64,000 nt of DNA from Klebsiella phage N1M2. The stretch is from sequence record MN642089.1, one strand, 5' to 3'. This document shows positions 2,505 through 60,448 of this stretch, piece after piece. Every line of letters begins with the position of its first letter. Within the stretch, counting starts at the first letter, position 1. The notes beneath the pieces are model-generated. The model worked only from the letters and a program-made list of their open reading frames with translations, made no database searches and was not told the origin of the DNA. Both the position numbers and the translations under genes were made by a program.

Positions 2505-2506
2505 AG

Positions 2507-2548
2507 CATACTCCCTTACCCTCCGCAAGGAAGGGTAAGGGTTATATG
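2507..2548. repeat. 42-nt repeat copy 1 containing bidirectional terminator hairpin CCCTTACCC-TCCGCAAGGAA-GGGTAAGGG
   Basis: Identical to 6878-6919; hairpin stem 2513-2521/2533-2541; lies between convergent genes. Confidence 0.8.
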
Positions 2549-2560
2549 TTTGTTTCTTTT

Positions 2561-19600: not shown

Positions 19601-22600
19601 TGGGTCAGTACATCAACTACGGCATCGCCTTGAGTACGATAGTGACCTGTTACTGAATCACGCTCGCCCATACTGACATCAGCCGCTGAGGTTGGTGTCG
19701 CATCTTGAGTATCATCTCCAAACATATCCGCTAAGAGATAACTACCAACTGCCGCAGTAGGGGAACCAAATGCGAATCTTCCCATGCGACCAAGTCGACC
19801 GCCACGACCAGCTCTCGCACCACCTCTTCTACGTCTAGTAGATTGACCACGTTGTTCAACGTCTAAGTCATCAGCAGGAGATCCCCCGAACAACCCTCTT
19901 CTCATTCCACCTGCGGCCTTGCCCATAACAAATGCTTGTGCAAGTTTAGTGAAACCTAATTTGAGAAGTTTGTAGATTGGCGAGGCTACTCCTAACACAC
20001 CACTAAACATGGCGCTACCAATTTTACCTAAACGCTTGATTGAAGCTGCGGTAGTTCCCAATGCAAACTTACCTACACCACCAAGAATATCACCAATAGC
20101 ACCAAGCGGGTTCTTGAAGAGTTTGACGGCAAAGCCACCGGCACCCATTACCAAACCTTTCAGTTTATCAAATAGACCACCACCTTCTTTCTTGCCAGCA
20201 CCTTCTTCTTTACTACCACCGAGTGTCTCAGAGATATTAATGATTGCTTCATTAACACGGTGCTTCTCTTGTTTCTCTTTCTGCTTTTCTTTCCAAGCCA
20301 AAGAGTTTAGACGCAAACTGTTATCTGAACTTTCACCCGTTACACCTAAAGGTTCATCGGGGTCTACTTCTGCAGGGATATCAAACTGTTTACAGAGTAA
20401 ACGATAAATTTTGTCCAGACGACGCTCTACACCATTCGGCCCAGATTTTCTTCCAGCAGCACCATTGCCTTCTCGATTAGGACCTTGAGAATAACCGAAC
20501 CTTCCGAGGAGGTTATTGATCCCAGCTCTAGCCAACCCTGCCGCACCGCCAACCATATTAGCAGCCATACCGCCCACGTTACGTACAGCAGCACCTGAGG
20601 CAGTGACCAGACCGGACTGATATTCCTCTTCACTAACCAGTTGATTACCTTGGTTATCATAAACAGCTCCATCAATCTCATTCCAACCAGTAATTGGTTT
20701 GAAACTACCATTGGCATCGCGAACGAAGTAATCACCGGTTTTAAATTTACTAGCTCTTAATACAGGGTTCTTTAAATCAGATTTAAGGAACACATCCTGT
20801 TGATAGAGAAACTCTTTACCCAACTGAATGGTCGATCTAATACGCTCCATTGGGTTAAGCATGTTGTAAGCACCCACAGCCGCGTCTCTAACGCTACGCA
20901 AGCCTTTTAGTGCCACTGCTCTACCATCAGACCCAAAGATCTTCCCTGCTAACTCTCTGGCTCCCACAACGGACTTATTAATAGCATCCATTACTGGACC
21001 GCGGATATCTTCCCAAGTTTTAATAACTTTCTTGGTAGCCATGTCCACGTATTCACCAGCGCGCAGTTTGGCTGCCTTCAGAATAGGCTCACCGCGTTCG
21101 TCAAGGATATCTTCTTCATCCGAAGGAGCATCCCCTTCTGGAGCGGCACCTGATCTTTGACGATGTTGTAACCACGCACCACCCAACAATCCCAATCCAG
21201 CAACTGACGCCGCCATAATTGGGTTCTGCATGAATGAAGACGCAACACCACCCAATAACCCACCAAGGATAAGAGGGTTGTTCTTGAAGAGGAATTCTGC
21301 AGATCTACCCAATACGTCATTTGGTACCAGTTTCTTAATACGATCAAGAACTGAACGTTTGGCTACTTCTTCTTGTTGCTCTACACGAGGGCTAGGGGCA
21401 CCAGAGAACAACTTACCTGCTTTAGCTAAATCAAGCATGGTTGTGAGAAGCATCGACATTTCTGTCGTTTTATCGAGAATCCCTTGGTTACTGGTTTTGA
21501 TGTCACTAAAGACACCAGTCTCAGAATCCCAATTAACCGTAGTGGAGTTTTTGAGTTGGTCGAGGTTACTTAAGCGTTCATTCAAAGTTCCTAATGTATT
21601 ATTAAGATCTTCATATGGATTAGCTGTAGGGCCAGCGCCAGCTCGTATTCCTCCCAGTGTTGGAGAAGGACCATTACCACTAGGGGTAGCACCTTTCAAT
21701 ACCGGGTTGTCTGGATTATCCATATACATTCCGATACGATCATGGAATGCTTGGATGTTAATCTTATCGATACCATTATCGGTATAGATAACTCCTAAGT
21801 CACGGAGCATTTGTTCGTTACCAGTGGCACGTAACAAATTAATACGTTCAGTGATATTAGGAATGTTTTCTTTTAAGTCCTGTGCTTTAGAACTAGCTGC
21901 GTTTAAACGTTCACGACCTTCTGCGGTATTAAGACGCCCCAGCATTTTGGTTCTGGTTAAACCATCCCCACTTTGGAACTGTCTAACTTCATCATCGGTA
22001 ATCCCGAAGTGACGTTTCATTACCGCATGGATTTCTTTCAGGTTCTCTGGAGAAACCCCTGGGATATCACCTAAGTAATAAAGAGGTTGGAAACCATACT
22101 CTTTGTCAACGTCGACAACGATCTGTTTAGCCAGCGCTTTACGAGCACCTGGTGATAACAGTTTGTCTGGATCCAAAGAGTCAACCATATTCAATGCAGC
22201 TGAAGTAAAGCTACGGAACTCAGAGTGAGGCATTAAGTCAGAAGCGACTGAAATTCTTCTGTCGGAGTCTTTTTGGAATTGGCCTCGAGTATAGTTGTAT
22301 CCAACTGACTCTACATCGTCACGACCGGTTCTCATCTTTTCCAAGATAAGGTTAGTCTGAGAAATCAACCCTGGCAATACTTCATTCAGGGTGATGTTGT
22401 TCATCTCTTTCCAAATACCTGGTTTATCCAGATCTTTAGGATTTCTTCTATTGATGGTATACTGAGTCCCGCGAGAGCGAGTGGTCTCTGACATCAATCG
22501 GTTAAGAGATTGTTTTGCTTTGTTCTCTGCAGCGTTCTTAGCCACCCAAACTGCTTTAGGTATTGGCTTGCGACCAGGAGGTAAACTATCTACATATTCC

Positions 22601-23880
22601 TCGTAATCGTAGAACCGCATCTCATCAAGAGGTTGCCAGTTATCCGCCATGTAGTTGGCAATACCACCACCAGACATAGCGATATGAGAAACTGTGTTAC
22701 CCATATCTGTTACTTTGGCAATCTGTTCCCTAATAAAGGTGCCTTGTTCAGGGTATTTCTTTATTAGGTTATCGATGGCTCTTTTACCTGGACCACGTGT
22801 AAAGAAGTATGGTAATTGGTCTACTGCCACACCAGCTATCATCTTACCAATGATATTGCCGAGCAAGCCGCGACTAAACCCTACATCACTACCCATCTCC
22901 AAACCGTCTGCAAGGTTCCCTAAGAGATCACTAATCCCATTATAGGCATCTTTACGGTTACCGGCATTAAACCGATCACGGAGCATTCCAGAGATACCGC
23001 CAACACGTTTACCAACCGCATTGAACACACTGTTTCGCATGTACTCTTTGGATGCAGTAAATGTATTGGTCTTTTCAAAATCTGAAAGTTTACTGTACTG
23101 AACAATACGTTTCAGTTCAGCAACTTCGGCATGAATACCAGCTTCCATGAACTTGTAGAATTTCGCATCTTGAACATAAGAGCGTGCCATCAAGTTCAGT
23201 TTGGCTTGATCCAATTTAGCTTGTACATTTCTTTGGTAGCTAAGAAGGTCACGTATCCCACCTTCTATATTTACAAGCTGTCTATTACCTGCACCAATAG
23301 TTGCAGATATCTGACCGCCTACGGTGGCAGCCATATTGTTTAAAGATTCACCGAGTGAAGCAAACATAGCTGATTGAGCCATTACTGAAGCATCAATAGC
23401 TTGGTCTACATCATCTTCGTCAACATTACCTAGTTTGGCATTGAAATTAGGATTTTCAGGATCGAGACGTTCCCAACTGGAGAAGTCTTTTTCACTGAAA
23501 TTACCTAATGCATTCTGAGCAAAACCAGGAAGCTTTGAACCCATTCTCTGATTGAGGTGGGAAGCAATGCTTTGTAAGGATTTGGCGGATTCGGCATTTT
23601 CCTCTTTAAACTCTCTAACCAGATCGTCAACACGACTACTGACAAAAGAAAGTTTATCAAGGGCATTGCTGTAAGAACTTGGTAAGATAGTTCTCAGTGT
23701 TCTCATGCGAGCTTCACCGGAACCTAAGGTTTCATCAAAAGCACCTTGCAGAAAACCTGTTGCAAGACTTCTGACAAACCCCTTACCTTTAAAGGGATCC
23801 ATATCGAAATCCATATCGAAATCTATATCCCCGGCAAATGGATCATCTCCCCAATCCATATCGAAATTATCGCTTGCCAT
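16693..23880 (-). CDS. giant virion-type protein (2395 aa) with internal GH19-like lysozyme domain
   Basis: Acidic DFDMD repeats at the N-terminus; GH19 signatures KKETGNY and YRGRGFFQLTGKANY at about nt 17330-17830; Pro/Ala/Ser-rich low-complexity C-terminus; size and the ejection-protein-plus-lysozyme architecture resemble internal virion proteins of jumbo phages. Confidence 0.8.
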   Translation of the reverse strand: MASDNFDMDWGDDPFAGDIDFDMDFDMDPFKGKGFVRSLATGFLQGAFDETLGSGEARMRTLRTILPSSYSNALDKLSFVSSRVDDLVREFKEENAESAKSLQSIASHLNQRMGSKLPGFAQNALGNFSEKDFSSWERLDPENPNFNAKLGNVDEDDVDQAIDASVMAQSAMFASLGESLNNMAATVGGQISATIGAGNRQLVNIEGGIRDLLSYQRNVQAKLDQAKLNLMARSYVQDAKFYKFMEAGIHAEVAELKRIVQYSKLSDFEKTNTFTASKEYMRNSVFNAVGKRVGGISGMLRDRFNAGNRKDAYNGISDLLGNLADGLEMGSDVGFSRGLLGNIIGKMIAGVAVDQLPYFFTRGPGKRAIDNLIKKYPEQGTFIREQIAKVTDMGNTVSHIAMSGGGIANYMADNWQPLDEMRFYDYEEYVDSLPPGRKPIPKAVWVAKNAAENKAKQSLNRLMSETTRSRGTQYTINRRNPKDLDKPGIWKEMNNITLNEVLPGLISQTNLILEKMRTGRDDVESVGYNYTRGQFQKDSDRRISVASDLMPHSEFRSFTSAALNMVDSLDPDKLLSPGARKALAKQIVVDVDKEYGFQPLYYLGDIPGVSPENLKEIHAVMKRHFGITDDEVRQFQSGDGLTRTKMLGRLNTAEGRERLNAASSKAQDLKENIPNITERINLLRATGNEQMLRDLGVIYTDNGIDKINIQAFHDRIGMYMDNPDNPVLKGATPSGNGPSPTLGGIRAGAGPTANPYEDLNNTLGTLNERLSNLDQLKNSTTVNWDSETGVFSDIKTSNQGILDKTTEMSMLLTTMLDLAKAGKLFSGAPSPRVEQQEEVAKRSVLDRIKKLVPNDVLGRSAEFLFKNNPLILGGLLGGVASSFMQNPIMAASVAGLGLLGGAWLQHRQRSGAAPEGDAPSDEEDILDERGEPILKAAKLRAGEYVDMATKKVIKTWEDIRGPVMDAINKSVVGARELAGKIFGSDGRAVALKGLRSVRDAAVGAYNMLNPMERIRSTIQLGKEFLYQQDVFLKSDLKNPVLRASKFKTGDYFVRDANGSFKPITGWNEIDGAVYDNQGNQLVSEEEYQSGLVTASGAAVRNVGGMAANMVGGAAGLARAGINNLLGRFGYSQGPNREGNGAAGRKSGPNGVERRLDKIYRLLCKQFDIPAEVDPDEPLGVTGESSDNSLRLNSLAWKEKQKEKQEKHRVNEAIINISETLGGSKEEGAGKKEGGGLFDKLKGLVMGAGGFAVKLFKNPLGAIGDILGGVGKFALGTTAASIKRLGKIGSAMFSGVLGVASPIYKLLKLGFTKLAQAFVMGKAAGGMRRGLFGGSPADDLDVEQRGQSTRRRRGGARAGRGGRLGRMGRFAFGSPTAAVGSYLLADMFGDDTQDATPTSAADVSMGERDSVTGHYRTQGDAVVDVLTQWLPSGMLAKAATDSLPMDKETREGLDNYGLFWSSDKKFFFKRDEMEAYEDKIKGVSKTPDGYGELKTQYATQPRAVRFAMYGCADQQSSFGRRLGWLEQVLYPYVTIRDNRASLKKDAPIEKILTDFMNTDSGTNHDAGAIQTWFVARFKPVFLVTNAAVSVARMGDIESFDNAKGYEVVQVLERVQQTLNTFSPNPFTIDVRVDSKYGTMGPESTRHKIDAVLKDMEKSYPKPSTTVEKIAPTVEANAKAQAPGVPKETGPSAEITAQDAMSKIAARASMDDIEKRFSQPEQVKTIDISDLMPGGDKEMDPFVMTRLAVYGNIDNMPWRVEAVLRLERYVESYIMVIGDQARFTGKSSQLLELFKPAFRISTKLAEMNWMTWFRDRFLPTLMTYTIEVKKLTGVVPERGWKQLSATNRAKVARKLTEQMVTVDEQLKTVWEVQASPFPNSTSGKWSDRADRYLKILDMKAQEARLKDPELEEEKSRGTSGDDPVQMAQAARSRQAAQSAIQEVFGNNKGIGGSSFTPSMNGVRTGGPTSVYPNPTMSVDGGGAGSAGQFMGKADANFNPEFLKKAGEDKGIKMSPEQGEKLMLNHLLKAGITDIKTIALALAMVKKETGNYQNTVENTNWSAPTLLKYFKNIPDAATAQKVAAMSPAERAMWVYGRAPKGPQLGNTTPEDGWKYRGRGFFQLTGKANYERFKKETGIDVVSNPQLVSEDPNVMAESAVRFLKNNKAMLSIAKTGDFDTAVRGINGGNAVPATDERRRYYQEYLNKLRNGDLALDGAEAEQAAATPPAPTNEPPAAADKGVPQGAVATDTPIATPPGQNTVSDLLKSDARNTAPSNAGTPPPMKTASTLDPGVAAGDTNDGPVNTVNSSAPSIDQPRAPTSSSSPSSNSAQPAPVKEAAKPVDKQAMPQVVQAPAMPDHINTTDATAAGQLAIANQTLNKIAQLLERSSSNSPMVRMN

Positions 23881-23910: not shown

Positions 23911-25527
23911 ATGAGCAGAAAACCTACTAACTTTACCTTGCTTGATACAAACAAGGTGCCCTGGGGAACTATGACACCAGTTACGGTGGCAGACTCGTTC
24001 GAAGGGCAAACTAGTAACCTTAATGATGATGGTTTATATTCCACATCCATCTTTGGCCGTGTAGGTACGGATGAACGTGATAAAACTATCTCATATATCG
24101 ATGTTACTCTCCCAATATTCAACCCCACGTATTTTAAAGCACTAATTCAACTGAAAGCTTTATACGGCGAAATCATCCGGGGTAGAGCATATGCAGTTTG
24201 GGATGCTGCTGAAAAGGATTTCATAAAATCCAACATCTTAGAAGGCGATACTGGATATGCTTTCTTCATGTCACATTTCCACGAACTCGATCCTGTACAG
24301 AATGAATCTTTCAAACGTAAACAGAAGATCGACCTGGTAGAACAATTCAGAGACAGAGCGCTCTCTAATAAGGTTATCGTTATACCTGCCGGTATTCGCG
24401 ATATTGAAATGAACAACGGCGTTGTTTCAGAAAACGAGATCAACGACCTTTATCGTAAACTTATCTTCCGTTCCAAATCTCTTAACGTAAGAAATGTGGA
24501 CATCGACGATCCAGTCTATGATAATATCCGTTGGGGTTTACAAGAGTCTTTCAACAATATCGCTGACTTCCTATTTAAGATGCAGGAAGGTAAACGTGGC
24601 TTCATGCAACGTCGCATGTCACGCCGTAGTATTTTCGGGGCGACTCGTAACGTTATTACCTCCCGTAAAGTATCAGTAGAAAACTGCGACGATAACGTCA
24701 CAGGCGATCCTAACTCCACCATCATCGGTTTGTATCAAGCACTGCTTGGATTCAACCTGGTGGCCATACATGAACTCTCAAGTGGGTTCTTGAGTGAAGT
24801 GTTTACTTCTGGTATGGGTGTTGCTCGTCTCGTTGACCCTAAAACGCTCAAGGGAACTTATGTTGATGTAAGTCCGGTAGTCGTAGATAAATTTACTTCT
24901 TCAGATGGCTTGACTTCTCTCTTTAATGGTTATGGTTCTCCTAACTTGAGAAACCGTGATATCAGAGTAGCTGGCCACTATCTCGGATTGGTTTATGACG
25001 ACGGTAAGAATGTCATGCTGTTACACGACATTGACGATCTTCCTGAATCATTCGATAAGAAGAAAGTTAGACCGGTAACTTATACTCAGTTCTTTTATAT
25101 GCAATGTGTAAAAGCAATTGAGAAGAAGATGTTGCAGGTTACACGTTACCCAATCACAGGTATCGGTTCTATCTATCCGAGCCGTGTCTTTGTAATGCCA
25201 ACTAACTCAACTTCCAGCAAACGTACATTATTAGATATTGATGGTTCCCCAATCGATACTTATAACTACTTCCCGGAATGGACTAAGAATCCAAGTTACT
25301 TTGACGGTATGTCTATTGCGAATATTCGCTTGGGACTTGCCGGTGGTGACTTCGATGGCGACGCCTTGTCTGCTAACTCCATTATGGCTGAAGACTCCAT
25401 TGCTGAGATTGAGAGTTTGTTTGGTAAACGTGACTTCTACATTTCTGGTTCTGGTGATTTCCTTTATGACCCAGTTCAGGAACCACATGAATTCCTTTTA
25501 CGCTCATTAACAAATGGATTAGCATAA
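23911..25527 (+). CDS. multisubunit-RNAP beta-prime-like N-terminal fragment (split subunit)
   Basis: Motif AGGDFDGDALSAN matches the universal beta-prime catalytic loop NADFDGD; the protein ends about 60 aa after the motif, as for split beta-prime in phiKZ-like phage RNAPs. Confidence 0.65.
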   Translation: MSRKPTNFTLLDTNKVPWGTMTPVTVADSFEGQTSNLNDDGLYSTSIFGRVGTDERDKTISYIDVTLPIFNPTYFKALIQLKALYGEIIRGRAYAVWDAAEKDFIKSNILEGDTGYAFFMSHFHELDPVQNESFKRKQKIDLVEQFRDRALSNKVIVIPAGIRDIEMNNGVVSENEINDLYRKLIFRSKSLNVRNVDIDDPVYDNIRWGLQESFNNIADFLFKMQEGKRGFMQRRMSRRSIFGATRNVITSRKVSVENCDDNVTGDPNSTIIGLYQALLGFNLVAIHELSSGFLSEVFTSGMGVARLVDPKTLKGTYVDVSPVVVDKFTSSDGLTSLFNGYGSPNLRNRDIRVAGHYLGLVYDDGKNVMLLHDIDDLPESFDKKKVRPVTYTQFFYMQCVKAIEKKMLQVTRYPITGIGSIYPSRVFVMPTNSTSSKRTLLDIDGSPIDTYNYFPEWTKNPSYFDGMSIANIRLGLAGGDFDGDALSANSIMAEDSIAEIESLFGKRDFYISGSGDFLYDPVQEPHEFLLRSLTNGLA

Positions 25528-28500
25528 TGTTCAAAGAACCTATCATTATTGATGGGAGTGAGGCCATGCAGTATAACATGTTTGTTAAGCTGTATGGTAC
25601 TCGCGAGAAGACTAACGATATCACCAATCCCCGCTATACTCCTGTCGGGGATATCATGCTTCCGCGTAATTCACTCATTCACTATCAACAGCAACATCCT
25701 GGTGAAATAGGTCCGAGTAACACCGCACCTTTTATTAGTAACTTTGATAAACGTATCAACATTTACTTTAACGTTAATTATGAAACTGTTCTTGGTGTAA
25801 CTAAAATTGAGAACATTCAGTTAAGTAAAATTATCAAAGGCTACGAAGGTTCACACTTCATCTATAGTCGTGCTCGTCAATATCAGACGGTCATTGGTAA
25901 AGAAGGTGAGCTGTTAGTAAACGACTTGGCTGTAGGTCAGATTCCTGTTGTCTATAAACGCAGAACTGTATTCACGCCATATCAAAAATCCTACAACGAA
26001 ATGTACACGTTGATGGATTCCGTAAATGAATTTGCTAAGTTTGGTCGTCACCAGTTTATCCAAATTGAAATGCCTCGCGTCTTCCCTACCTTTAAAAATC
26101 TTCAGCTGAACTTTGAGAAGTATAAGAAGTTCTTTAATGAAGATTATGAAGTTGTTCGGTATGACAAGATTCCTCTTCAACCATTCCAAGCAGAGCAATC
26201 ATTCTGGTTGTTGGATCTGTATGGGATTCTGATGGGTTATGAAGATGCTAAGTACAGCCTGTTTAACCGTTTGAGTGATCAAGCACGTCAACAGCTGGAA
26301 ATCATTTTCACCTATAACGGTATGTGCTGGATTGTTAACTTACAGAACCTAATTAACGTTCTGAGTTATTCAGACAAACCTAATGATGAAAAAGCTAGCT
26401 CTTTAAAGATCAACTATTTCAAACGCTTCTATCTATCTTTAATTAGCCTAGTTACTCCTATCTCGGAAGGTATTGGGAAAGTTAAGGATGAAGAAGAAGA
26501 TAACGGGGACGATGACCAAGACGGGCAGTCAACTAGAAGAGAAACTGCTGATGACAAATCGTCCGAAGAAGGGGTTCCTGGGAAGGGTACCGCTGTGGGT
26601 GATAATTCTGGGGGTAGTTCTTTGGCTGATCTTTACGCCAGCACTCCGAGAAGCGATACTCTACAAAACGACGCCGTACGAAGTGAGGGAACGCAAGCTG
26701 ATACTGAAGCACATGACCCAGTCGCCGATGCATCAGACGAGGAAGACGACGTAGACCAAGACAGTTGGGGACAAGATGTCCCAGATGAACTGTTTGAACG
26801 TGCTACTGTTGAAAACGTCTCTCTGACTGTCGCTCAAGCTGCAAGTCCTACTTCAACTATCTCTCGTCAATTAACGGAACTTTCTCGTAACGGTCAATTA
26901 ACTTCCAAAGAGAAAGACTTTTATGAAAGAGCTGCTAACAGTTATCATGACATTGAGTTTGGCGGACACACGCTGGCTGAGATCGTAGATATCAAACCTG
27001 AGGACATGGTTCTCAAAGATACTTCGATTGCTCCAGACTCAATCGTAATTACTGATAAGTCGGCCCTTAAATCACGTACTGAACTTCTCAGCGATGAGTA
27101 CATCAAGAACATTCACCAGAGAAACATTCTGGAAATGATTCTGCATGTTCAGAACGGCGGTACCGCATTAACCGATCTGGAAGTAGAAAGAACAATTACG
27201 GCTGACTCTAAGTATGATGTTTATACCATGAAGTTCCAGCGTGTTAAAGGTGGACAATCTACTCGTCGTATGCGTTTACCTGTGGTTGAAGAAGATGGTA
27301 CCTTTACCATTAACGGTGTTAAGTCTTATATGCAGTTAATGCGTATGGAACTTCCTATCCGCAAAATCTCTCCAACTAAGGTTGCCCTCACTTCTTATTA
27401 CGATAAGAAGGTAATGGTTGAACGCTCAACTAAGAAAGTAGATGACTATGCTCGTTGGTTGAAATCGAGTATCATCGAAAGGTCTTATGTTGATAAGACT
27501 CTCCAGGTAGGTCTTGGTGGATTCAAACCACCTAAAGAAGAAGTCTGTTACTATTATTCTGTTCTGGCTTCCCGTTTCAAAACCGTCATTACTCCCGAAT
27601 ACCATTTCGACTTCGATACTGTTTCCTTAGTAGATGGTAAACGTGAGTTGGCTAAGTTGTGTAATACCAACAGCTGGTTAATTGGCTTTAAAGGCGAACA
27701 CCCTATCCTTATCGATAGCACTGGTCTGATTACAGTGGATGGGGCAGAGCAAGGTTATATTGAAGAGATCTTGGGGTTAAACATTTCCAAGGCTCCTATC
27801 CCTACTGCTACTGTTAACATCAATGGGTATCATTTCCCAGCGATTGTTGTTCTGTCTTATTGGATTGGTTTCAGTAATGTCCTGAAGGCTCTCAAAGCTC
27901 AGTACCGAACTGTAGACCCTGATCAACGTCCTAACTTAGGCGCTGATGAGTATATGGTCCAGTTAGCCGATGAACGCTTGATCTTCAACCGTCGTGATGA
28001 ACTTACCACACTGGTGATGTCCGGTCTTCGTAAGTTAAACAACTTGAGTAACTTCTCTCGTTCTAACTTAGATGATCCTAATATCTGGTTTGGTCTTGTC
28101 GGTGACCAACGTGTTAAACCAAGTCACTTCAAAGAAATGACTATGTTGTATGACATGTTTATCGATCCGATTACGATGCGTTTGTTAGAGAAATTCAAAT
28201 ATCCAGTTGTTATGGATAAGTTGATCATCGAAGCTGTTAAGCTGATGCTCTCTAATGAATCCAAACACGAAATCGAAATCACCGAACAACGTTTCGTCGG
28301 TTATGAACGTTTTGCTGGTCATGTTTATCGTGAGATGGTTAAAGCAACTCGTCAAGCACGTAACAAACCAAATAACGGTAAGGTTACTTTCGACCTCAAC
28401 CCTGAAGCCGTGATGATGAACATTATCACTGACTCCTCAGCCCAAGCTTGTGAAGAGGTTAACCCAGTTCACCAAGTTAAGCAACAAGAGGAAGTTACTT

Positions 28501-29867
28501 TCGGTGGTTCATTGGGTCGTAGTGATCGTGCAATGGTTCGTCGTACTCGTGGTCAATTACCTAACTATGAAGGGATTATCTCTGAGGCAGGTAAAGACTC
28601 CGGTAAAGTTGGTTTCATTAGTTACCTAACTTCTGATGCCAAGATCGTTGACCTTTATGGTAACATTAACGTTAAAGAGAAAACAACCAACACTGGTCGT
28701 GGCTCTGTCGTTATGAACTTACTGTACGGTACAACGAAGGACGATACCAAACGTACTCTGTTCTCTGGTGTTCAGCAGTCTCAGGTTATGGCTGCGGATA
28801 ACTACGTGATGAACCCGCTGCGTACTTCTTATGATACCGTTCTTGCTTATCGTACTTCTGAACTTTATTCTTCTGTTGCAAAACAAAATGGTAAAGTGAC
28901 TGAAGTTACTGCTTATGGCATGAAAGTTGAATATGAAGATGGTTCCGAAGATAAGTTCCCATTAGGTTATGAGATTGGTAAAGGTGCTGGTGAATATCAT
29001 AAGCACATGAAAATTACCGACTTCAAAGTTGGGGATAAGTTTGAGAAGGGAACTATTGTAGCGTGGGATGAGATGTTCTTTGCACGAGACAACATTGATC
29101 CGACTCGCGTTGTGTGGAAAGCTGGTGCGATTGCTCGTATTGCATTGATTGAAGACCAGTTCACCTTTGAGGACTCCATCGGTATCGTTAAAGGTTTTGC
29201 TGAAGCTTCGACTTCTCCATTCCTTAAACCGAATGATTTCAAAGTAGAAGCTGTTCAATCTATCAAGATGCATGTGAAGGTTGGTGATACTGTTGAGTAC
29301 GATCAGATCCTATGTGACATCGAGAACCCGGTCTCGGCTGTATTCGAAGCTGATGATAGTGGTGATTTTGATGGTCTTGATCGTGCGGGTATTAAACAGA
29401 TCAAAGCTAAACAGTCTGGGGTGATCTCTAAAATTGAAGTTGTTTATAACGGCGACATCGATGGTTGGAGTGAATCTCTTCGTTCCTTTATTAACAAGCA
29501 AAATGGGATTCGTTCTAAAGTAGCTAGTTATAAAGTGAATGCCGCTACAACTGGTAACGTTGGTGGTAACACTTCGGTTGGTAAATCTAAAGTGTATCCT
29601 GATACTGCTGTTGTTTATATTTATATCGACAACAAGATCAAAACCACTACTGCAGATAAGTTCGTAGTTGGTAACCAGATGAAAGGCACTGTTGGGTTTA
29701 TCTATGAACACCCAATCTACACTACCGACGGTCGTCCTGTAGATATTACGTTCTCTCTTAAATCACTACTGAACCGAATGGTACTTAGTCTTCGTGACAA
29801 GTTGGTAGCGAATGAAGTGAACAACGTTTATACAGAACGCATGGTTTCGAAATACGGAAAATATTAA
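25527..29867 (+). CDS. large protein (1446 aa) translationally coupled to the beta-prime-like fragment; possible further RNAP module
   Basis: Start overlaps the upstream stop (TAATG); contains an about 100-aa acidic Asp/Glu/Ser-rich linker; no canonical beta or beta-prime C-terminal motif seen by eye. Confidence 0.75.
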   Translation: MFKEPIIIDGSEAMQYNMFVKLYGTREKTNDITNPRYTPVGDIMLPRNSLIHYQQQHPGEIGPSNTAPFISNFDKRINIYFNVNYETVLGVTKIENIQLSKIIKGYEGSHFIYSRARQYQTVIGKEGELLVNDLAVGQIPVVYKRRTVFTPYQKSYNEMYTLMDSVNEFAKFGRHQFIQIEMPRVFPTFKNLQLNFEKYKKFFNEDYEVVRYDKIPLQPFQAEQSFWLLDLYGILMGYEDAKYSLFNRLSDQARQQLEIIFTYNGMCWIVNLQNLINVLSYSDKPNDEKASSLKINYFKRFYLSLISLVTPISEGIGKVKDEEEDNGDDDQDGQSTRRETADDKSSEEGVPGKGTAVGDNSGGSSLADLYASTPRSDTLQNDAVRSEGTQADTEAHDPVADASDEEDDVDQDSWGQDVPDELFERATVENVSLTVAQAASPTSTISRQLTELSRNGQLTSKEKDFYERAANSYHDIEFGGHTLAEIVDIKPEDMVLKDTSIAPDSIVITDKSALKSRTELLSDEYIKNIHQRNILEMILHVQNGGTALTDLEVERTITADSKYDVYTMKFQRVKGGQSTRRMRLPVVEEDGTFTINGVKSYMQLMRMELPIRKISPTKVALTSYYDKKVMVERSTKKVDDYARWLKSSIIERSYVDKTLQVGLGGFKPPKEEVCYYYSVLASRFKTVITPEYHFDFDTVSLVDGKRELAKLCNTNSWLIGFKGEHPILIDSTGLITVDGAEQGYIEEILGLNISKAPIPTATVNINGYHFPAIVVLSYWIGFSNVLKALKAQYRTVDPDQRPNLGADEYMVQLADERLIFNRRDELTTLVMSGLRKLNNLSNFSRSNLDDPNIWFGLVGDQRVKPSHFKEMTMLYDMFIDPITMRLLEKFKYPVVMDKLIIEAVKLMLSNESKHEIEITEQRFVGYERFAGHVYREMVKATRQARNKPNNGKVTFDLNPEAVMMNIITDSSAQACEEVNPVHQVKQQEEVTFGGSLGRSDRAMVRRTRGQLPNYEGIISEAGKDSGKVGFISYLTSDAKIVDLYGNINVKEKTTNTGRGSVVMNLLYGTTKDDTKRTLFSGVQQSQVMAADNYVMNPLRTSYDTVLAYRTSELYSSVAKQNGKVTEVTAYGMKVEYEDGSEDKFPLGYEIGKGAGEYHKHMKITDFKVGDKFEKGTIVAWDEMFFARDNIDPTRVVWKAGAIARIALIEDQFTFEDSIGIVKGFAEASTSPFLKPNDFKVEAVQSIKMHVKVGDTVEYDQILCDIENPVSAVFEADDSGDFDGLDRAGIKQIKAKQSGVISKIEVVYNGDIDGWSESLRSFINKQNGIRSKVASYKVNAATTGNVGGNTSVGKSKVYPDTAVVYIYIDNKIKTTTADKFVVGNQMKGTVGFIYEHPIYTTDGRPVDITFSLKSLLNRMVLSLRDKLVANEVNNVYTERMVSKYGKY

Positions 29868-51917: not shown

Positions 51918-54900
51918 TTAGTAATAACGACTACGGTTACCAAAACGACTTGCTTTAGAACGTTGTTCGATTAAACGTTTACTACGTTCTTGTTTAGCAT
52001 TCTCAATGATTTCGTCGATAGTAATTGTCTTACGGAGTTCTTTAGGTATCAACTCAGACAACTTACGGATTTCCATCTCGATACGGATAGCTAACGTATT
52101 GTTATCTGAACCTAACAGTTCTTTAGTTAGCAAGTTAATTCTTTCTCGTATCTTGGTGAACAGATCCAGTTGTGCTTTGTTATACTGAGGAGCAGAACCT
52201 TGATCTCTTAAAGAAGTGATCTCGATCATTGTTGCACCTTGTGGAATGCCATAAAGGGTTTTGTTATAACCCAGTTTGATAAACCAGTATGTCAACAACC
52301 ATGCAATTACCAAGTCATCATGACCTGAGGATTTGTGGTCAATACGACCATCCTTATCAACTTCAAGTCCAATCAGTTCATCGATCAAAAGTTTATATCT
52401 GATTACCGCACCTGTTAATGAGATTGCCTCATGAATGAACCCATACATTTGTCTACGAGTTTCTGGACCGGTGTGGAAACCAAATTTACCTTTGAATCTA
52501 AGATAGAATTCCTTAGTACGATGTTTGAAGTTCATCTCCATTACATCTCGGTATTCATTCTTATACTTAACTGGATCTTGGAAGATATCATTAAAGATTC
52601 TAGTGAATGGATCGATACCATAAGCCGGCAGTGTGATCAATAAACGTTCGATCATCATCGCAGCACGGTTTCGCTCAATAACTAACATACTGTTAGGTAT
52701 TCTTATCAGTAGTTCTTTAACAACGTCAGTAACATCATCAAGAAATGCCAGAGCATAACGACCAGTACCCACAACCTCACCTGACTTCATACGCCTGATA
52801 ACTAATGTACAAGCATCTCGGTCGTTGGCATCTGAGGTATCCATTCCGTAGAGTAGGAATTCTGATTCATCATGTTTATAAGCTTCTACTATTTCTTCAG
52901 GAATAAACCAGTCTACAAATAAACCAGTATCCCCAATCTCTTCATTTCGACAATGTTCAACTTTACTTTCTGCTAACTTCTCACGAGTAAAGTCATCGAA
53001 GAGTTTGTTCATCCCTTCTTCAGTCCACATCATCAACAAGTCGATCTTAGCTTTAGACCAAGAAAGACCAAGCTTATCCATTGTCTCCTTAACCCACGCA
53101 TGACCAAAGCCAAGTTGCAGGTGAGTAAACATCATACCCACTTTAGGATAAGTTGTTTTAACAGGAGAAGCTTTCATAATGCGTTTAACTAAATGAGTTT
53201 CAGAGAAGCTATCGAAGAAACTTTCACGCCACTCTGTAGAAGACATAAAGTCATCATGCATATAACGACCTTCCTCTTTAAGAACAGAGTTAGGTGTTGT
53301 GGCCTTTGCAGTAAAGTAAGGAATACCTTTTTCACGTGCTTCTTTTTGTGCAGTCAGGGTCGCAGGACCCGAACCGTTGATAATGTTCTCGATGTATTTC
53401 GTCCATGCAGGTTCGTCATACAACAGAACTTCAAAGGTTGAACCACGAGATACGTTCTCTGCACCATCTGCACCACCTGAAGGCACACGTACTTCAAAGG
53501 TGTTCTTTTTATCTTCACCAAAGGCTTGATAAGTTAATGCGTTACCAGCATCCTTATCTTTATAAGTCATGTTGGTTAGATATTCAGGTAAGCCAGCACG
53601 TATCTTCTTAAGCGCTTCAACAAACTGCATACGGTTAGCTGCAGCCAGAGTGATAAGACCAGTGCGGAAACCACGACCTAACAGGTACTGCATAATAAAT
53701 GCAAGTACCTGCATCCCGACTGTGTTGTGAGTAACAACAAAGTTATCAGTCACGTACAGGTGGTCTTTGTGAGCAACCTCGATACACTGACATTCAACAT
53801 CACGAACATGTTTAACATCATAGATTGCGAGTTTACTATTAAAGACTGCACCACGCAGGGCTTCCTCAGCACGCTTCAGTTTGCGATCAGTATGGAAGAG
53901 CAACCAAGGTTCACGATGACGGATGTTAACGCGGTAGGAAGCCCTACATTTCTTCTTAACACCATCTTTGATATATCCAGTGTCACGTTCTGTTATGGAG
54001 GCCAATCCACCCACTGAACGGATAAGGTATACCATATCCTCAGCTAACTGCTTGGAACTGGTATCGAAGGTAACGTGTTTCTTCTCACTGATAGTTCCGT
54101 CGGTATCCATCAAACCTTTGATGAGTAACAAACGTTGGGCGTGAGAACCTTCGAGGTATTCCTTAGGAATGAACTTCTCGTGAGAGAGTTTACCAAGGAG
54201 ACCCATCTCTTCGAGCATCTTACCGATGTAGCGTTTAGACTGGTCGCCCTTGTCACGATACTCGTATTTATCCAGAGGGTTGGTGCGTATTACGTTATAT
54301 TCCTTCCCACCCATACAGTCACTTAACTTGTGACCTTTAGGGAGACGACGATTAACGTAGTCAACAATATCCTGATCGATATTGGTAAATCCAATCAGGT
54401 CTTTGGTGAAACAACCATCACCAATTAAAGCACCAAGAACGTAAGGATCAATAACAAAGTCTTTGTGTTTAGTTTGCTCTGCATCTACCAGCGGAATGGA
54501 TAAACGGTTCTTAGCTTTGGAGAGTTCTTTCTGACGTTCGATAATCTCCAACGTAGTAAGAATACGCCATTTACCGGCATGGCCTTTACCAGCGTCCCAA
54601 ACCTTCCACAGATGTTCATCACTTGCTTCACAAGTACGACCATCAGCAAAGGTAAATTTATATACTGGTTTAATGCCCTGAGGATAAACACCAACAACGT
54701 TGGTAACCGACCCGTCGTGAGCAAATACCTTAGAACCAACTTCCATCTCACCCATTAACTTCCAACCATCAGGAGTTCTGATCTTGGAATCTAATGGCTG
54801 GGCCTTCCCAGATTGTCGAGGCATCAGGATGGTTGTAGGGATATGGTTAACGCAAGACCAGATGAAAGATATTACCGCACGGTTACCACGGAATCTACGC

Positions 54901-55328
54901 CCACCGATTTTAATAACCTCGCGAAGAATGTACCAGATGTTTTCGTTACATTCGTTCAAGATCATCATACGCTGTTCATCAGTCAGGTCTTCTGACCAAG
55001 GGTCGAGATCTTTAATGAGTGGGTTGTTAATTTGCAGAAGGAAGTAATAGTTCTTAATTCCCATCTGTCTGAATAGTTCTGCTGTACGTAAGAAACTCTT
55101 GTTAGTTGTTTCTGTATGAACACCAGCACCATAACGAGAAAAGTCTTTTAGGAATCTAACAGTTTTAAGAGTCCAAAGAGAATCTTCATGATAGTGAGCC
55201 ATGATACGTTCATCATGATCTTCTAATTTGTTACGTTCGTTTTTGTCATCCATCAGGTATTCTGGTAAAGCACCAGCTTTTATTCCCTGATGAGCTAAGA
55301 GCTTCTTAGCAAGTTCTAAATGTTCCAT
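51918..55328 (-). CDS. terminase large subunit containing an in-frame intein
   Basis: Walker A reconstituted as PRQSGK|T after intein removal; Walker B VLLYDE; nuclease-like LLYGMDTSDANDRDA; the 360-aa insert has intein and LAGLIDADG signatures. Confidence 0.8.
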   Translation of the reverse strand: MEHLELAKKLLAHQGIKAGALPEYLMDDKNERNKLEDHDERIMAHYHEDSLWTLKTVRFLKDFSRYGAGVHTETTNKSFLRTAELFRQMGIKNYYFLLQINNPLIKDLDPWSEDLTDEQRMMILNECNENIWYILREVIKIGGRRFRGNRAVISFIWSCVNHIPTTILMPRQSGKAQPLDSKIRTPDGWKLMGEMEVGSKVFAHDGSVTNVVGVYPQGIKPVYKFTFADGRTCEASDEHLWKVWDAGKGHAGKWRILTTLEIIERQKELSKAKNRLSIPLVDAEQTKHKDFVIDPYVLGALIGDGCFTKDLIGFTNIDQDIVDYVNRRLPKGHKLSDCMGGKEYNVIRTNPLDKYEYRDKGDQSKRYIGKMLEEMGLLGKLSHEKFIPKEYLEGSHAQRLLLIKGLMDTDGTISEKKHVTFDTSSKQLAEDMVYLIRSVGGLASITERDTGYIKDGVKKKCRASYRVNIRHREPWLLFHTDRKLKRAEEALRGAVFNSKLAIYDVKHVRDVECQCIEVAHKDHLYVTDNFVVTHNTVGMQVLAFIMQYLLGRGFRTGLITLAAANRMQFVEALKKIRAGLPEYLTNMTYKDKDAGNALTYQAFGEDKKNTFEVRVPSGGADGAENVSRGSTFEVLLYDEPAWTKYIENIINGSGPATLTAQKEAREKGIPYFTAKATTPNSVLKEEGRYMHDDFMSSTEWRESFFDSFSETHLVKRIMKASPVKTTYPKVGMMFTHLQLGFGHAWVKETMDKLGLSWSKAKIDLLMMWTEEGMNKLFDDFTREKLAESKVEHCRNEEIGDTGLFVDWFIPEEIVEAYKHDESEFLLYGMDTSDANDRDACTLVIRRMKSGEVVGTGRYALAFLDDVTDVVKELLIRIPNSMLVIERNRAAMMIERLLITLPAYGIDPFTRIFNDIFQDPVKYKNEYRDVMEMNFKHRTKEFYLRFKGKFGFHTGPETRRQMYGFIHEAISLTGAVIRYKLLIDELIGLEVDKDGRIDHKSSGHDDLVIAWLLTYWFIKLGYNKTLYGIPQGATMIEITSLRDQGSAPQYNKAQLDLFTKIRERINLLTKELLGSDNNTLAIRIEMEIRKLSELIPKELRKTITIDEIIENAKQERSKRLIEQRSKASRFGNRSRYY
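53724..54803 (-). mobile_element. intein (360 aa) with LAGLIDADG homing endonuclease, inserted in terminase P-loop
   Basis: Insert residues A176-N535 of the 1136-aa ORF; ends VVTHN followed by Thr (+1); two LAGLIDADG-type motifs LGALIGDGCF and LLIKGLMDTDGTI; block-B-like SDEHLW; starts with Ala, not Cys or Ser. Confidence 0.75.
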
Positions 55329-59500: not shown

Positions 59501-59577
59501 TGGTGGCCCTGACAGGACTTGAACCTGTGACCAGGCGATTATGAGTCACTTGCTCTAACCAGCTGAGCTACAGGACC
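59501..59577 (-). tRNA. tRNA-Met or tRNA-Ile2 (anticodon CAT)
   Basis: Manual cloverleaf: acceptor GGTCCTG/CAGGGCC, D-arm GCTC-AGCTGGTTA-GAGC, anticodon loop CTCATAA, T-arm ACAGG-TTCAAGT-CCTGT, encoded CCA; one A-C mismatch at 27-43. Confidence 0.8.
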
Positions 59578-59585
59578 ATTGCTTG

Positions 59586-59825
59586 TTATGCTTCTACTGC
59601 TTTCAGATGACGGTCAAGATCTTCGTAACCACCAACATACTGATCGTCAACTACGATCTGCGGAACAGTACGAACTGGACGACCGACGATTTCACCCAAT
59701 TTGGCGCCATCAATACCAGCTTCTACGATATTGATATATTCAACTTCAGCACCTTTGGAATCAGCCAGTGCTTTGGCGCGATCACACCAAGGGCAATTCG
59801 GTTTGCCGTAGATTACAACTTTCAT
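59586..59825 (-). CDS. glutaredoxin
   Basis: 79 aa; CPWC active site near the N-terminus; VPQIVVDDQYVGGYEDL typical of the Grx fold. Confidence 0.75.
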   Translation of the reverse strand: MKVVIYGKPNCPWCDRAKALADSKGAEVEYINIVEAGIDGAKLGEIVGRPVRTVPQIVVDDQYVGGYEDLDRHLKAVEA

Positions 59826-59977
59826 TTATTTTCCTAACTGATTGTAATATGAATAAAACTGAATATCCAAATGAGGAATTCAATAACTCCCCATCCGATA
59901 ACCCCACAGATGAGACCAGCTACTATCAAGGCCCCTGTCCAGGGCCCACTAGAATAAAACATGTGTATCCCTTAAAG

Positions 59978-60054
59978 TGGTCCGCTCTGCTGGGCTCGAA
60001 CCAGCGACCGATTGCTTAGAAGGCAATTGCTCTATCCTACTGAGCTAAGAGCGG
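59978..60054 (-). tRNA. tRNA-Arg (anticodon TCT)
   Basis: Acceptor CCGCTCT/AGAGCGG, D-arm GCTC-AGTAGGATA-GAGC, anticodon stem ATTGC/GCAAT with loop CTTCTAA, T-arm GCTGG-TTCGAGC-CCAGC, CCA encoded. Confidence 0.85.
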
Positions 60055-60065
60055 TGAATAGCTAT

Positions 60066-60150
60066 CGGGAGTAAGATTCGAACCTACATAGTCTTACGGA
60101 CGTATCCGCCTTCGAATTCCCTCACTAAGTTTAAATAGACTATCCCGAAA
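60066..60150 (-). ncRNA. tRNA-like element with canonical T-arm (GTAGG-TTCGAAT-CTTAC) but unresolved or degenerate cloverleaf
   Basis: + strand GATTCGAACC marks a minus-strand T-loop; a 6-bp acceptor-like pairing TCGGGA/TCCCGA; a long-range ATAGTCT/AGACTAT pairing suggests an insertion or non-canonical fold. Confidence 0.3.
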
Positions 60151-60374
60151 AGTGGCACTTATGATAGGTCTCGAGGTCAGGACTCTAACCTGACTACTGC
60201 GATGATGTCCAGTGGTAGAAACTAATCATCCACCATCACATCACTGCGATGTCTTCAACGACATCCTCGAAGTTGGAATTACACACCGAGTAACCGATAG
60301 GTGGGAAGTGGATCCCAGGTATGCGTTTTAGGCCCTGGCCTGTTGTACCCCGGTTGCACTCAGCATGTAATAGT

Positions 60375-60448
60375 TGGCTGGGGTAGTTGGGATTGAACCA
60401 ACGTCCAGGGATTAACAGTCCCCCGCTAAACCACTCAGCTATACCCCA
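60375..60448 (-). tRNA. tRNA-Asn (anticodon GTT)
   Basis: Acceptor TGGGGTA/TACCCCA, anticodon stem GGGGA/TCCCT with loop CTGTTAA, T-arm GTTGG-TTCAATC-CCAAC, CCA encoded; its 5-prime end abuts the HNH stop codon. Confidence 0.75.

Follow-up and report, generated by a model that had tools for sequence, protein, structure and literature searches.

A predicted class 3 intein in the Walker A motif of the terminase large subunit of Klebsiella jumbo phage N1M2

What is the 360-residue insert that splits the Walker A P-loop of the terminase large subunit (TerL) of Klebsiella jumbo phage N1M2, and by what chemistry might the P-loop be restored? From sequence comparison, we propose with a probability of roughly 0.87 that the insert is a full-length class 3 (WCT-type) intein, consisting of a Hint domain and a two-motif LAGLIDADG endonuclease and predicted to be mobile by homing. 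The gene lies on the minus strand of the window, the whole 64,000-nucleotide stretch of record MN642089.1 that was analyzed, and all of the features described below are on that strand. Its complete open reading frame (51918..55328) encodes a precursor of 1136 residues plus the stop codon and matches QGH72111.1 and YP_010665709.1 exactly. The N-extein (residues 1–175; 54804..55328) ends in the first part of the Walker A motif, PRQSGK (54804..54821), and the C-extein (residues 536–1136; 51918..53723) begins with TVGMQ and contains the Walker B motif EVLLYDE (53412..53432); extein residues Asp278 and Glu279 of this motif are invariant in the extein alignment. The earlier note on this DNA had suggested aligning the extein with terminases across the junction, and the joined exteins indeed match the PHROG family phrog_2, "terminase large subunit", contiguously across that point (E=4e-43). 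Isolate homologues of the extein also carry a TerL annotation, and on these comparisons the reading frame is probably the TerL of N1M2. With hhalign, extein PRQSGKT pairs with SRQLGKT of T4 gp17, and extein LLYDEPA pairs with the T4 Walker B sequence IYIDECA in the same alignment, the statistics of which are weak (E=0.022, low probability). The assignment of the extein Walker A motif draws on this score and on motif logic. Pfam returned no family for the extein at E≤1, PDB searches with the extein sequence alone and with a 17-sequence profile returned chance matches only, and an AF2 model of the extein built from 17 close homologues (pLDDT 49, pTM 0.31) was too poor for use.

The boundaries of the insert are defined by natural alleles that lack it. 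The TerL proteins of Serratia phages Yubaba and Sureiya (98.2% amino acid identity to the N1M2 extein over 776 residues) and of Shewanella phage SXP01 (90% identity) read PRQSGKTVGMQ, and they align with the N1M2 extein gap-free across the junction and without any further indel. These empty sites place the insertion point exactly between Lys175 and Thr176 of the P-loop (PRQSGK/T, the slash marking the point of insertion). The intein accordingly extends from Ala1 to Asn360 (1080 nt; 53724..54803; precursor residues 176–535); it starts with AQPLDSKIRT, ends with FVVTHN, and is flanked by Lys at position −1 and Thr at position +1. Its removal leaves ...ILMPRQSGKTVGMQ..., exactly as in the intein-less alleles, which bears out the earlier claims that the 360-residue insert splits the TerL Walker A motif and that taking it out restores RQSGKT. 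At the DNA level the empty site of Yubaba is CCTCGCCAGTCTGGTAAA/ACAGTTGGGATGCAGG, and an AAG variant of the site also exists. The same insert is present in eight independent assemblies, with the frame open throughout. A tblastn search with the intein found 805 phage records (best E=4e-96), and a search of a large protein database found 347 proteins at E≤1e-10; within the 64-kb window there is no further copy at E≤1. Chance-level similarity to inteins and an annotation frame error, either of which the earlier note held would undo its reading, are thus both contradicted. It is hardly credible that the insert stays in the protein, whether as a lasting extra domain, as part of a pseudogene, or as an error of assembly or annotation. 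The GenBank record and the N1M2 genome paper, which placed the unspliced TerL in a terminase phylogeny (PMC7058600), do call all 1136 residues terminase and do not mention inteins. However, retention would leave the Walker A GK/T split, the insert is under purifying selection and its set of intein catalytic residues is complete, the eight assemblies agree in an open frame, and the phage is viable.

To which class does the intein belong? Two samples bear on this question: an alignment of 114 members of the general intein family, and the 90 inteins that occupy the N1M2 insertion site in 118 TerL cluster representatives of the N1M2 phage family. The studied references are MP-Be, the characterized class 3 prototype (the "DnaB" intein of mycobacteriophage Bethlehem, gp11 residues 141–481; Tori et al. 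2010, PMC2807308), and DnaBi1 of Mycobacterium smegmatis (Msm), a class 3 mini-intein of known crystal structure (6BS8; Kelley et al. 2018, PMC6195587). The sequence features by which Tori et al. define class 3 (PMC2807308) are all found in N1M2. Residue 1, in block A (AQPLDSKIRTPDGW; 54762..54803), is Ala (54801..54803) and not a Cys, Ser or Thr nucleophile; it is Ala in 113 of the 114 general family members. Block B (SDEHLW, intein residues 61–66; 54606..54623) contains Ser61, His64 and, at block position 12, the WCT residue Trp66 (H64-L65-W66), and it aligns with MP-Be Ser62, His65 and Trp67. Block F (VECQCIEVAHKDHLY; 53754..53798) has at its position 4 the predicted initiating nucleophile, Cys340 (53784..53786), aligned to MP-Be Cys320 and Msm Cys118, and it continues through Ile341 to His348 and Tyr350, the counterparts of MP-Be Ile321, His328 and Phe330. 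Block G, FVVTHN together with Thr+1 (53721..53741), supplies the WCT residue Thr358 at position 5, followed by His359 and Asn360. Thr+1 (53721..53723), a +1 residue that also conforms to class 3, doubles as the Walker A Thr of TerL. Across the general family His64, Trp66, Cys340, Ile341, Thr358, His359 and Asn360 are invariant (114 of 114), and the +1 residue is Thr in 102 members and Ser in 12. While most family members have Cys-Cys at the position of Ala60-Ser61, this pair is the N1M2 sequence. The resemblance to class 3 that the earlier note had seen in Ala1, the Trp of SDEHLW and the Thr before His-Asn is upheld. Its placing of the block F Cys within VECQCIEV (intein residues 336–343) was right as to the motif, which holds two Cys residues, and the relevant one is Cys340. 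Cys338 was considered as the block F nucleophile and rejected: it is Cys in 51 and Ala in 44 of the 114 members, and it is out of register with MP-Be Cys320.

The inteins at the TerL site itself vary far more at residue 1, which is Leu, Met, Ala, Glu, Phe, Gly, Tyr, Gln, Pro, Cys or Asp; it is Cys in only two, and a non-nucleophile in the other 88 of 90. The HxW of block B, the block F Cys, the terminal Thr-His-Asn and Thr+1 are present in all 90, and the block F Cys stands 21 residues from the C-terminus in 89. These inteins can be regarded as a large natural mutagenesis set, with 11 identities at residue 1 against an invariant WCT triplet, THN and Thr+1, and as such they lend independent support to the class 3 rule, by which residue 1 can be dispensed with and the block F Cys cannot. 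Class 3 chemistry is assigned to the N1M2 intein by homology and motif covariation. A class 2 (KlbA) assignment was rejected: the archaeal KlbA inteins, a separate family, have Ala1 in common with N1M2 but combine it with Cys+1 and no WCT triplet (PMC2807308), whereas N1M2 has Thr+1 and the complete, invariant triplet. The same contrast makes it very improbable that the intein splices by a route other than class 3, for instance with Thr+1 attacking the N-terminal junction directly, in the manner of class 2 KlbA, and Cys340 acting only as a structural or activating residue. Beyond the shared Ala1, such a route could appeal to the model of Tori et al., in which Cys320 may also "activate Thr+1 for attack" (PMC2807308). 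However, the C320A and C320S mutations of MP-Be abolish both splicing and N-terminal cleavage, and cleavage occurs without Thr+1 (PMC2807308); likewise, Msm DnaBi1 C118A is splicing-dead (PMC6195587). A thiol-labile branched intermediate at block F and dependence on the block F Cys have been demonstrated for these homologues, MP-Be (PMC2807308) and Msm DnaBi1 (PMC6195587).

The predicted structure agrees with a class 3 intein that has retained its endonuclease. In a Foldseek search the AF2 model of the intein (pLDDT 92.8, pTM 0.91) was matched by three bipartite intein-endonucleases, PI-SceI, TliVMA and PI-PfuI, at E values between 1e-17 and 1e-12. It also matched 6BS8, the class 3 DnaB intein of Msm (target-normalised TM 0.85), as well as the hedgehog Hint domain and I-DmoI; at the sequence level the intein matches 6bs8 (E=2e-8) and gp41-1 (E=1e-8). 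The horseshoe fold in the model, blocks A, B, F and G, and the precise in-frame insertion documented by the empty-site allele are those of a Hint intein. The Pfam family Hom_end_hint matched only below threshold (E=0.049), and NCBIfam gave partial matches to intein-containing models, far below threshold. The endonuclease domain (approximately intein residues 100–322; 53838..54506) matches Pfam LAGLIDADG_3 (E=4e-10) and Hom_end (E=6e-5), each above the curated cut-off. Its first motif, LGALIGDGCF (intein residues 123–132; 54408..54437), aligns with GFIAGDGCF of PI-PfuI, and its second, LLIKGLMDTDGTI (intein residues 226–238; 54090..54128), with IAGLFDAEGHV. Among 53 sequences Gly128, Lys210, Pro213, Asp233, Asp235 and Gly236 are invariant and Asp129 is nearly so; these include the acidic residues of G-D-G (Asp129) and D-x-D-G (Asp235), and the K-x-I-P lysine is conserved too. 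Together with the fold matches to I-DmoI and PI-SceI, these features describe a putative monomeric two-motif LAGLIDADG enzyme, a type in which two LAGLIDADG helices, each bearing a conserved acidic residue, form part of an alpha-beta-beta-alpha-beta-beta-alpha pseudo-dimer, and the earlier claim of two LAGLIDADG motifs in a complete homing intein holds at the level of sequence and fold.

Is the element still mobile? Comparison of N1M2 with the metagenomic allele L007 gives a dN/dS of 0.034 for the intein (Hint part 0.038, endonuclease domain 0.032) and of 0.021 for the extein, and among seven alleles 57 of the 360 intein positions vary, none of them catalytic. Inteins and exteins are also discordant among the alleles. 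Allele P0122 contains the intein within an extein that is 100% identical to the intein-less TerL of Yubaba, and P0128 has an N1M2-type extein (100%), yet its intein is 99.2% identical to that of P0122. Compared with N1M2, the intein of P0151 is 89.7% identical and its extein only 78.1%, while the extein of P0137 is 84.5% identical and its intein only 49%. Presence and absence at identical exteins, this discordance and a dN/dS close to 0.03 suggest that the element is functional and mobile. An alternative that we consider unlikely is that splicing follows class 3 chemistry while the endonuclease is inactive, so that the intein is inherited only vertically and its patchy distribution arises from losses. 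Decayed endonucleases are common among inteins, and shortened inteins of 156 to 300 residues occur at the same TerL site. Moreover, no co-conversion tract was detected by the insertion site: divergence between N1M2 and Yubaba is only weakly and non-significantly raised near the junction, and L007 and Yubaba show a single junction-adjacent difference, at position −1. Because dS between N1M2 and L007 is close for the intein (0.49) and the extein (0.69), the difference between N1M2 and the Yubaba-like alleles could equally reflect vertical descent of the intein with a later, precise loss from Yubaba. Loss of endonuclease activity is nonetheless hard to reconcile with a domain that is as constrained as the Hint domain and conserves both LAGLIDADG acidic residues and the K-x-I-P lysine, and with the allele comparisons just described.

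How, then, would an active terminase arise? N1M2 is a viable, plaque-forming lytic isolate (PMC7058600) and its intein is under strong purifying selection, from which we infer that the intein is splicing-competent. By homology to the Bethlehem "DnaB" intein and DnaBi1, we propose that translation yields a TerL precursor whose P-loop is split and inactive. Ala1 would be unable to initiate splicing; instead, the Cys340 thiol would attack the Lys(−1)-Ala1 bond, helped by His64 and Trp66, to give a thioester-branched intermediate, from which the N-extein would move to the Thr+1 hydroxyl. Asn360 would then cyclise with the assistance of His359, freeing the intein, and an O-to-N shift would rebuild the PRQSGKT P-loop of an active 776-residue TerL with the predicted junction peptide ...MPRQSGKTVGMQ.... 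The LAGLIDADG domain of the free intein is predicted to cut the intein-less TerL site during co-infection, whereupon repair would copy the intein in. A further idea, which strikes us as rather improbable, is that the intein is not purely selfish but serves as a conditional switch for DNA packaging. The candidate catalytic residue Cys340 belongs to a C338-Q-C340 pair, and Cys58 adjoins block B; Cys340 could be trapped reversibly, by oxidation or by zinc, as for DnaBi1 Cys118 in mycobacteria, and TerL would stay inactive, in precursor form, until the infected cell offered conditions that allow packaging. If this were true, the very high occupancy of the site, in 90 of 118 representatives, would be owed to regulatory selection and not to homing alone.

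The practical consequences of the N1M2 intein are modest. The annotation of its TerL, whose RefSeq name is "DarB-like antirestriction", ought to record the intein. In other phage proteins the presence of an intein has led to a wrong name, gyrase or helicase. The intein-containing and intein-less alleles with identical exteins, those of a metagenomic Yubaba-like phage and the Yubaba isolate, offer a ready system in which to study homing in jumbo phages, and a full-length class 3 intein of enterobacterial phage origin could serve protein engineering in E. coli-like hosts. In the literature on jumbo-phage inteins we found a split intein in DNA polymerase B and an intein in ribonucleotide reductase, and no class 3 intein in a jumbo-phage terminase.

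Finally, how does the N1M2 intein compare with known systems? Among its closest counterparts are P-loop inteins of the form GK/AQPL...VTHN/(T or S), whose hosts in phages and metagenomes include PhoH, DnaB, AAA, RecA-like, SNF2 and terminase proteins. They share with N1M2 the insertion point between the Walker A Lys and Thr or Ser, the block sequences and 35–43% full-length identity, and they include the "classic P-loop" TerL1-a inteins of mycobacteriophages (Kelley et al. 2016, PMC5050341); the host protein in N1M2 differs in being a divergent TerL of OBP-like jumbo phages. The TerL inteins of Aeromonas phage AerS_266 and Klebsiella phage YC1 occupy the identical site (PRQxGK/TV) with 47% and 41% identity, respectively, and have the internal signatures WDAGKG..GKWR, NxLSIPLV and KFNSKL in common with N1M2, but they begin with Leu1 (LQCWYSK and LSKLDS) where N1M2 begins with Ala1. 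The YC1 TerL is annotated as "intein-containing". MP-Be aligns with the N1M2 intein end to end (E=4e-25, 25% identity), with all of its mutationally defined residues aligned: N1M2 H64, W66, C340, H348, Y350 and T358 are in register with MP-Be H65, W67, C320, H328, F330 and T339. Both are Hint-LAGLIDADG inteins of similar length (341 residues in MP-Be) in phage host genes, with a non-nucleophilic residue 1, S-x-x-H-x-W in block B, Cys-Ile in block F followed by His and an aromatic residue 8 and 10 residues on, and T-H-N/T at the C-terminus. MP-Be differs in having Pro1 for Ala1, in Asp324 where N1M2 has Ala344, and in its insertion site in Bethlehem gp11 (VSQDQ/P...HN/TKN), which is not a GK/T P-loop. 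DnaBi1 resembles N1M2 in its P-loop insertion, in using the Walker A Ser or Thr as the +1 nucleophile, and in its WCT triplet (W67, C118, T137); however, it has lost the endonuclease, its host is a bacterial helicase, and its redox partner Cys48 has no equivalent in N1M2, where the aligned residue is Val47. PI-SceI, PI-PfuI and TliVMA are the best structural matches to the whole two-domain intein and their LAGLIDADG motifs align with it, but they are class 1 (Cys1) inteins with 13–16% identity, and PI-SceI has an extra DNA-recognition region. By sequence and predicted fold, the N1M2 intein is a clear, previously undescribed example of the known class 3 type and no new kind of element: it belongs to a very large family already known and is ordinary within it, with no unusual combination of features.

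What splits the terminase large subunit (TerL) of Klebsiella phage N1M2? The TerL precursor is a 1136-aa ORF on the minus strand (51918..55328) that agrees in every residue with the 'putative terminase large subunit' annotated for this 253-kb OBP-like jumbo phage (QGH72111.1 / YP_010665709.1). The earlier note placed a 360-aa insert at 53724..54803, and both re-translation, by which all sub-feature coordinates were checked, and natural intein-less alleles bear this out: the intein occupies 1080 nt of the minus strand (TerL residues 176-535), begins AQPLDSKIRT, ends FVVTHN, and is flanked by Lys at position −1 and Thr at position +1. In a megablast search of phage genomes, the closest relatives of the N1M2 TerL gene, those of Serratia phages Yubaba and Sureiya (~90% nucleotide identity) and of Shewanella phage SXP01, match in two segments that lie directly next to each other in the subject. 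These intein-less TerL proteins are 776 and 774 aa long, and their alignment with N1M2 TerL contains one 360-residue gap, exactly between ...ILMPRQSGK and TVGMQ...; outside it, the N1M2 and Yubaba proteins are 98.2% identical. The insert is thus an element of its own with exact boundaries, and the annotation or frame error that had been raised against it is ruled out. Its G+C content is a little above that of the extein, that is, TerL minus the insert (0.439 versus 0.40; GC3, 0.42 versus 0.34-0.38). The Lys(−1) codon (54804..54806) is AAG in all four intein-bearing DNAs (N1M2 and the metagenomic Yubaba-like contigs L007, L008 and L009) and AAA in both intein-less alleles (Yubaba and SXP01), a small and partly non-independent sample; L007 and Yubaba differ nowhere else within 36 nt of the junction.

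To which class does the intein belong? Class 3 inteins, as defined by Tori et al. (2010), have a non-nucleophilic first residue, Ser or Thr at +1, and a co-varying set consisting of Trp at block B position 12, Cys at block F position 4 and Thr at block G position 5 (WCT), and they lie mostly in the P-loops of helicase-like ATPases, phage terminases among them (PMC2807308). The N1M2 intein carries Ala1, H64-L-W66, Cys340, T358-H359-N360 and Thr+1. It aligns end to end (E=4e-25, 25% identity) with the class 3 prototype, the MP-Be intein of mycobacteriophage Bethlehem gp11 (aa 141-481), which has Pro1 and Gln−1. The pairwise alignment matches MP-Be S62/H65/W67 with S61/H64/W66 in block B, K319/C320/I321 with Q339/C340/I341 and H328/F330 with H348/Y350 in block F, and T339/H340/N341 with T358/H359/N360 at the C-terminus. 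The MP-Be mutations C320A and C320S abolish splicing and all cleavage (PMC2807308); likewise, C118A kills splicing in Msm DnaBi1, a class 3 mini-intein of M. smegmatis (PMC6195587). When 114 sequences from the wider family are aligned, H64, W66, C340, I341, T358, H359 and N360 never vary, residue 1 is Ala in 113, and +1 is Thr in 102 and Ser in 12. Thus the class 3 resemblance proposed in the earlier note holds, as do its Ala1, its Trp two residues after the block B His (W66) and its Thr before the terminal His-Asn (T358). Its block F Cys, assigned within VECQCIEV, must be the second Cys of that motif, Cys340, since the first, Cys338, is Cys in only 51 of the 114 sequences (Ala in 44) and is ruled out. 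Just before the block B D/E-H-L-W motif, residues 60-61 (54621..54626) are Ala-Ser in the N1M2 lineage and mostly Cys-Cys in the wider family (85 and 90 of 114).

Sequence and modeling together indicate that the insert is a full-length intein. A search with intein and LAGLIDADG HMMs succeeded for the endonuclease, with Pfam LAGLIDADG_3 (E=4e-10) and Hom_end (E=6e-5) above threshold, and fell short for the Hint part, whose Hom_end_hint match is sub-threshold (E=0.049). The AF2 model, for which 53 homologues were used, has high confidence (pLDDT 92.8, pTM 0.91), and its best Foldseek matches in the PDB are the bipartite intein-endonucleases TliVMA, PI-SceI and PI-PfuI (E 1e-17 to 1e-12), followed by the M. 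smegmatis class 3 DnaB intein 6BS8 (target-normalised TM 0.85), I-DmoI, gp41-1, Prp8 inteins and hedgehog Hint domains. Both LAGLIDADG motifs claimed for a complete homing intein were recovered: LGALIGDGCF (intein residues 123-132) aligns with PI-PfuI GFIAGDGCF, and LLIKGLMDTDGTI (226-238) aligns with PI-PfuI IAGLFDAEGHV. Endonuclease residues G128, D233, D235, G236, K210 and P213 do not vary among the 53 homologues, and D129 hardly does.

The reconstituted extein matches the PHROG family phrog_2 'terminase large subunit' in one stretch spanning the junction (E=4e-43), as had been predicted. Neither a Pfam search nor sequence and profile searches of the PDB gave a match to it, and its AF2 model from 17 close homologues is too poor for use (pLDDT 49). 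The single alignment reported by hhalign between the extein profile and the T4 gp17 sequence, at only E=0.022, pairs TTILMPRQSGKTV with TVCNLSRQLGKTT, the T4 Walker A motif, and FEVLLYDEPAW with FAMIYIDECAF, the T4 Walker B motif and catalytic Glu; residues D278 and E279 are invariant in the extein alignment. Elsewhere, in PhoH, DnaB, AAA and SNF2 proteins, inteins of this family split the motif G-x-x-x-x-GK-[T/S] between GK and T/S. Because these observations combine, we regard the assignment of PRQSGK/T as Walker A, and with it the claimed P-loop insertion, as sound, although direct statistical support is weak; the position between PRQSGK and T is itself set by the intein-less alleles.

An extein search yielded 120 cluster representatives of the N1M2-type jumbo-phage TerL family, 118 of them scorable; 90 carry an insert at the PRQxGK/T site and 28 are intein-free. 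The inserts range from 156 to 360 aa, and residue 1 varies freely (L 19, M 19, A 10, E 10, F 7, G 7, Y 7, Q 5, P 3, C 2, D 1). All 90 contain H-x-W, block F C-[IL]-[EQ]-[VIL], T-H-N and Thr+1, with the block F motif 21 residues from the end in 89. A variable residue 1 beside a constant WCT set is the pattern that the class 3 mechanism predicts. The two inteins with Cys1, in the TerL homologues P0137 (CTPLSS...) and P0168 (CVRREC...), retain the full WCT triplet and Thr+1 and are candidate dual-nucleophile inteins or class 1/class 3 intermediates.

Is the element mobile? The N1M2 protein cluster has eight members. The extein of P0122, which contains the intein, is 100% identical to intein-less Yubaba TerL; P0126 and P0128 have N1M2-identical exteins and inteins just 95.6% and 95.8% identical to that of N1M2, and the P0128 and P0122 inteins are 99.2% identical to each other. 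Relative to N1M2, P0151 is 89.7% identical in the intein and only 78.1% in the extein, and P0137 is 84.5% identical in the extein and 49% in the intein. Homing, replacement and loss would be expected to leave such discordances, as well as presence or absence of the intein where exteins are identical. The DNA for P0122 is L007-L009, a locus ~97% identical to Yubaba. Between N1M2 and L007, dN/dS is 0.034 in the intein (Hint part 0.038, endonuclease domain 0.032) and 0.021 in the extein, so selection appears to preserve both predicted activities, splicing and endonuclease; a comparison of seven alleles gave 57 variable positions in the intein, all of them outside the catalytic set. Since dS in the intein (0.49) is close to that in the extein (0.69), vertical descent with precise loss in Yubaba would explain the N1M2/Yubaba-like pair equally as well as recent invasion, and comparison of N1M2, L007 and Yubaba found no co-conversion tract around the site. 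Separately, a 137-nt run in the Walker B region of the C-extein (53347..53483) is 100% identical between N1M2 and both Yubaba and L007, against a background N1M2/Yubaba divergence of ~10% (99.9th percentile of the simulated longest identical run, 95 nt) and 88% identity in SXP01. It looks like a recombination patch that is separate from the intein site, with its start ~240 nt downstream. Between the thymidylate kinase gene and TerL, the three contigs have ~670 nt with two small ORFs of 67 and 76 aa (2318..2987), versus ~130 nt in N1M2 and Yubaba.

We propose that the precursor, its P-loop split, should be inactive. Cys340 would attack the Lys(−1)-Ala1 bond, the N-extein would then be handed to Thr+1, Asn360 would cyclise, and an O-N shift would regain PRQSGKT. 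Thr+1 would thereby be splicing nucleophile and Mg-coordinating Walker A residue in one, as is the +1 residue of Msm DnaBi1 (PMC6195587). Because N1M2 is a lytic plaque-forming isolate (PMC7058600) and the intein is under purifying selection, the intein is probably splicing-competent. The DnaBi1 analogy (PMC6195587), the presence of Cys338/Cys58 and the very high site occupancy could point to a redox- or metal-sensitive packaging switch in which these two cysteines would be possible partners of Cys340, an idea that we consider a long shot.

Inteins also drive the misnaming of phage proteins that bear them. RefSeq applies 'DarB-like antirestriction' to N1M2 TerL and to many others (SNF2 helicases, other TerLs), and database records include 'gyrA', 'replicative DNA helicase' and 'DNA helicase/terminase'; NCBIfam gives only sub-threshold partial matches to intein-containing helicase, gyrase and RecA models. 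Other minus-strand features of the window are three tRNA genes (Met (CAT), Arg (TCT) and Asn (GTT); 59501..60448) and a 2395-aa ORF (16693..23880) with Glyco_hydro_19 (chitinase/lysozyme-like) at aa 2107-2160. The sub-threshold RNA_pol_Rpb2_6 match of a plus-strand 1446-aa ORF (25527..29867) would fit a beta-like subunit of a phiKZ-type phage RNA polymerase.

Finally, phage terminase P-loops have been recognised as sites of class 3 inteins since 2010 (PMC2807308), and surveys of such inteins cover mycobacteriophages and actinobacteriophages (PMC5050341; bioRxiv 10.1101/2025.01.02.630785). The family is very large: it occurs in 805 phage records, among them those of 300 Mycobacterium phages and of many jumbo phages, and at E<=1e-10 it also has 347 metagenomic clusters. 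The intein goes unmentioned in the N1M2 genome paper (PMC7058600), and our literature search turned up no publication that describes class 3 inteins in the terminases of jumbo phages; the N1M2 TerL intein is therefore a previously unremarked member of a well-known type. A tblastn search found no second copy in the window, and the 699-aa SNF2-family helicase (3653..5752, minus strand; Pfam SNF2-rel_dom, ResIII, Helicase_C) is intein-free, unlike PhiPA3 SNF2 helicase gp233, whose P-loop holds an intein of the same family (AGTGK/AQPL...THN/TY). Among isolates, allelic inteins occupy the same TerL site in Aeromonas phage AerS_266 (47% identical to that of N1M2, Leu1) and in Klebsiella phage YC1 (41% identical, Leu1), the latter annotated 'intein-containing'.
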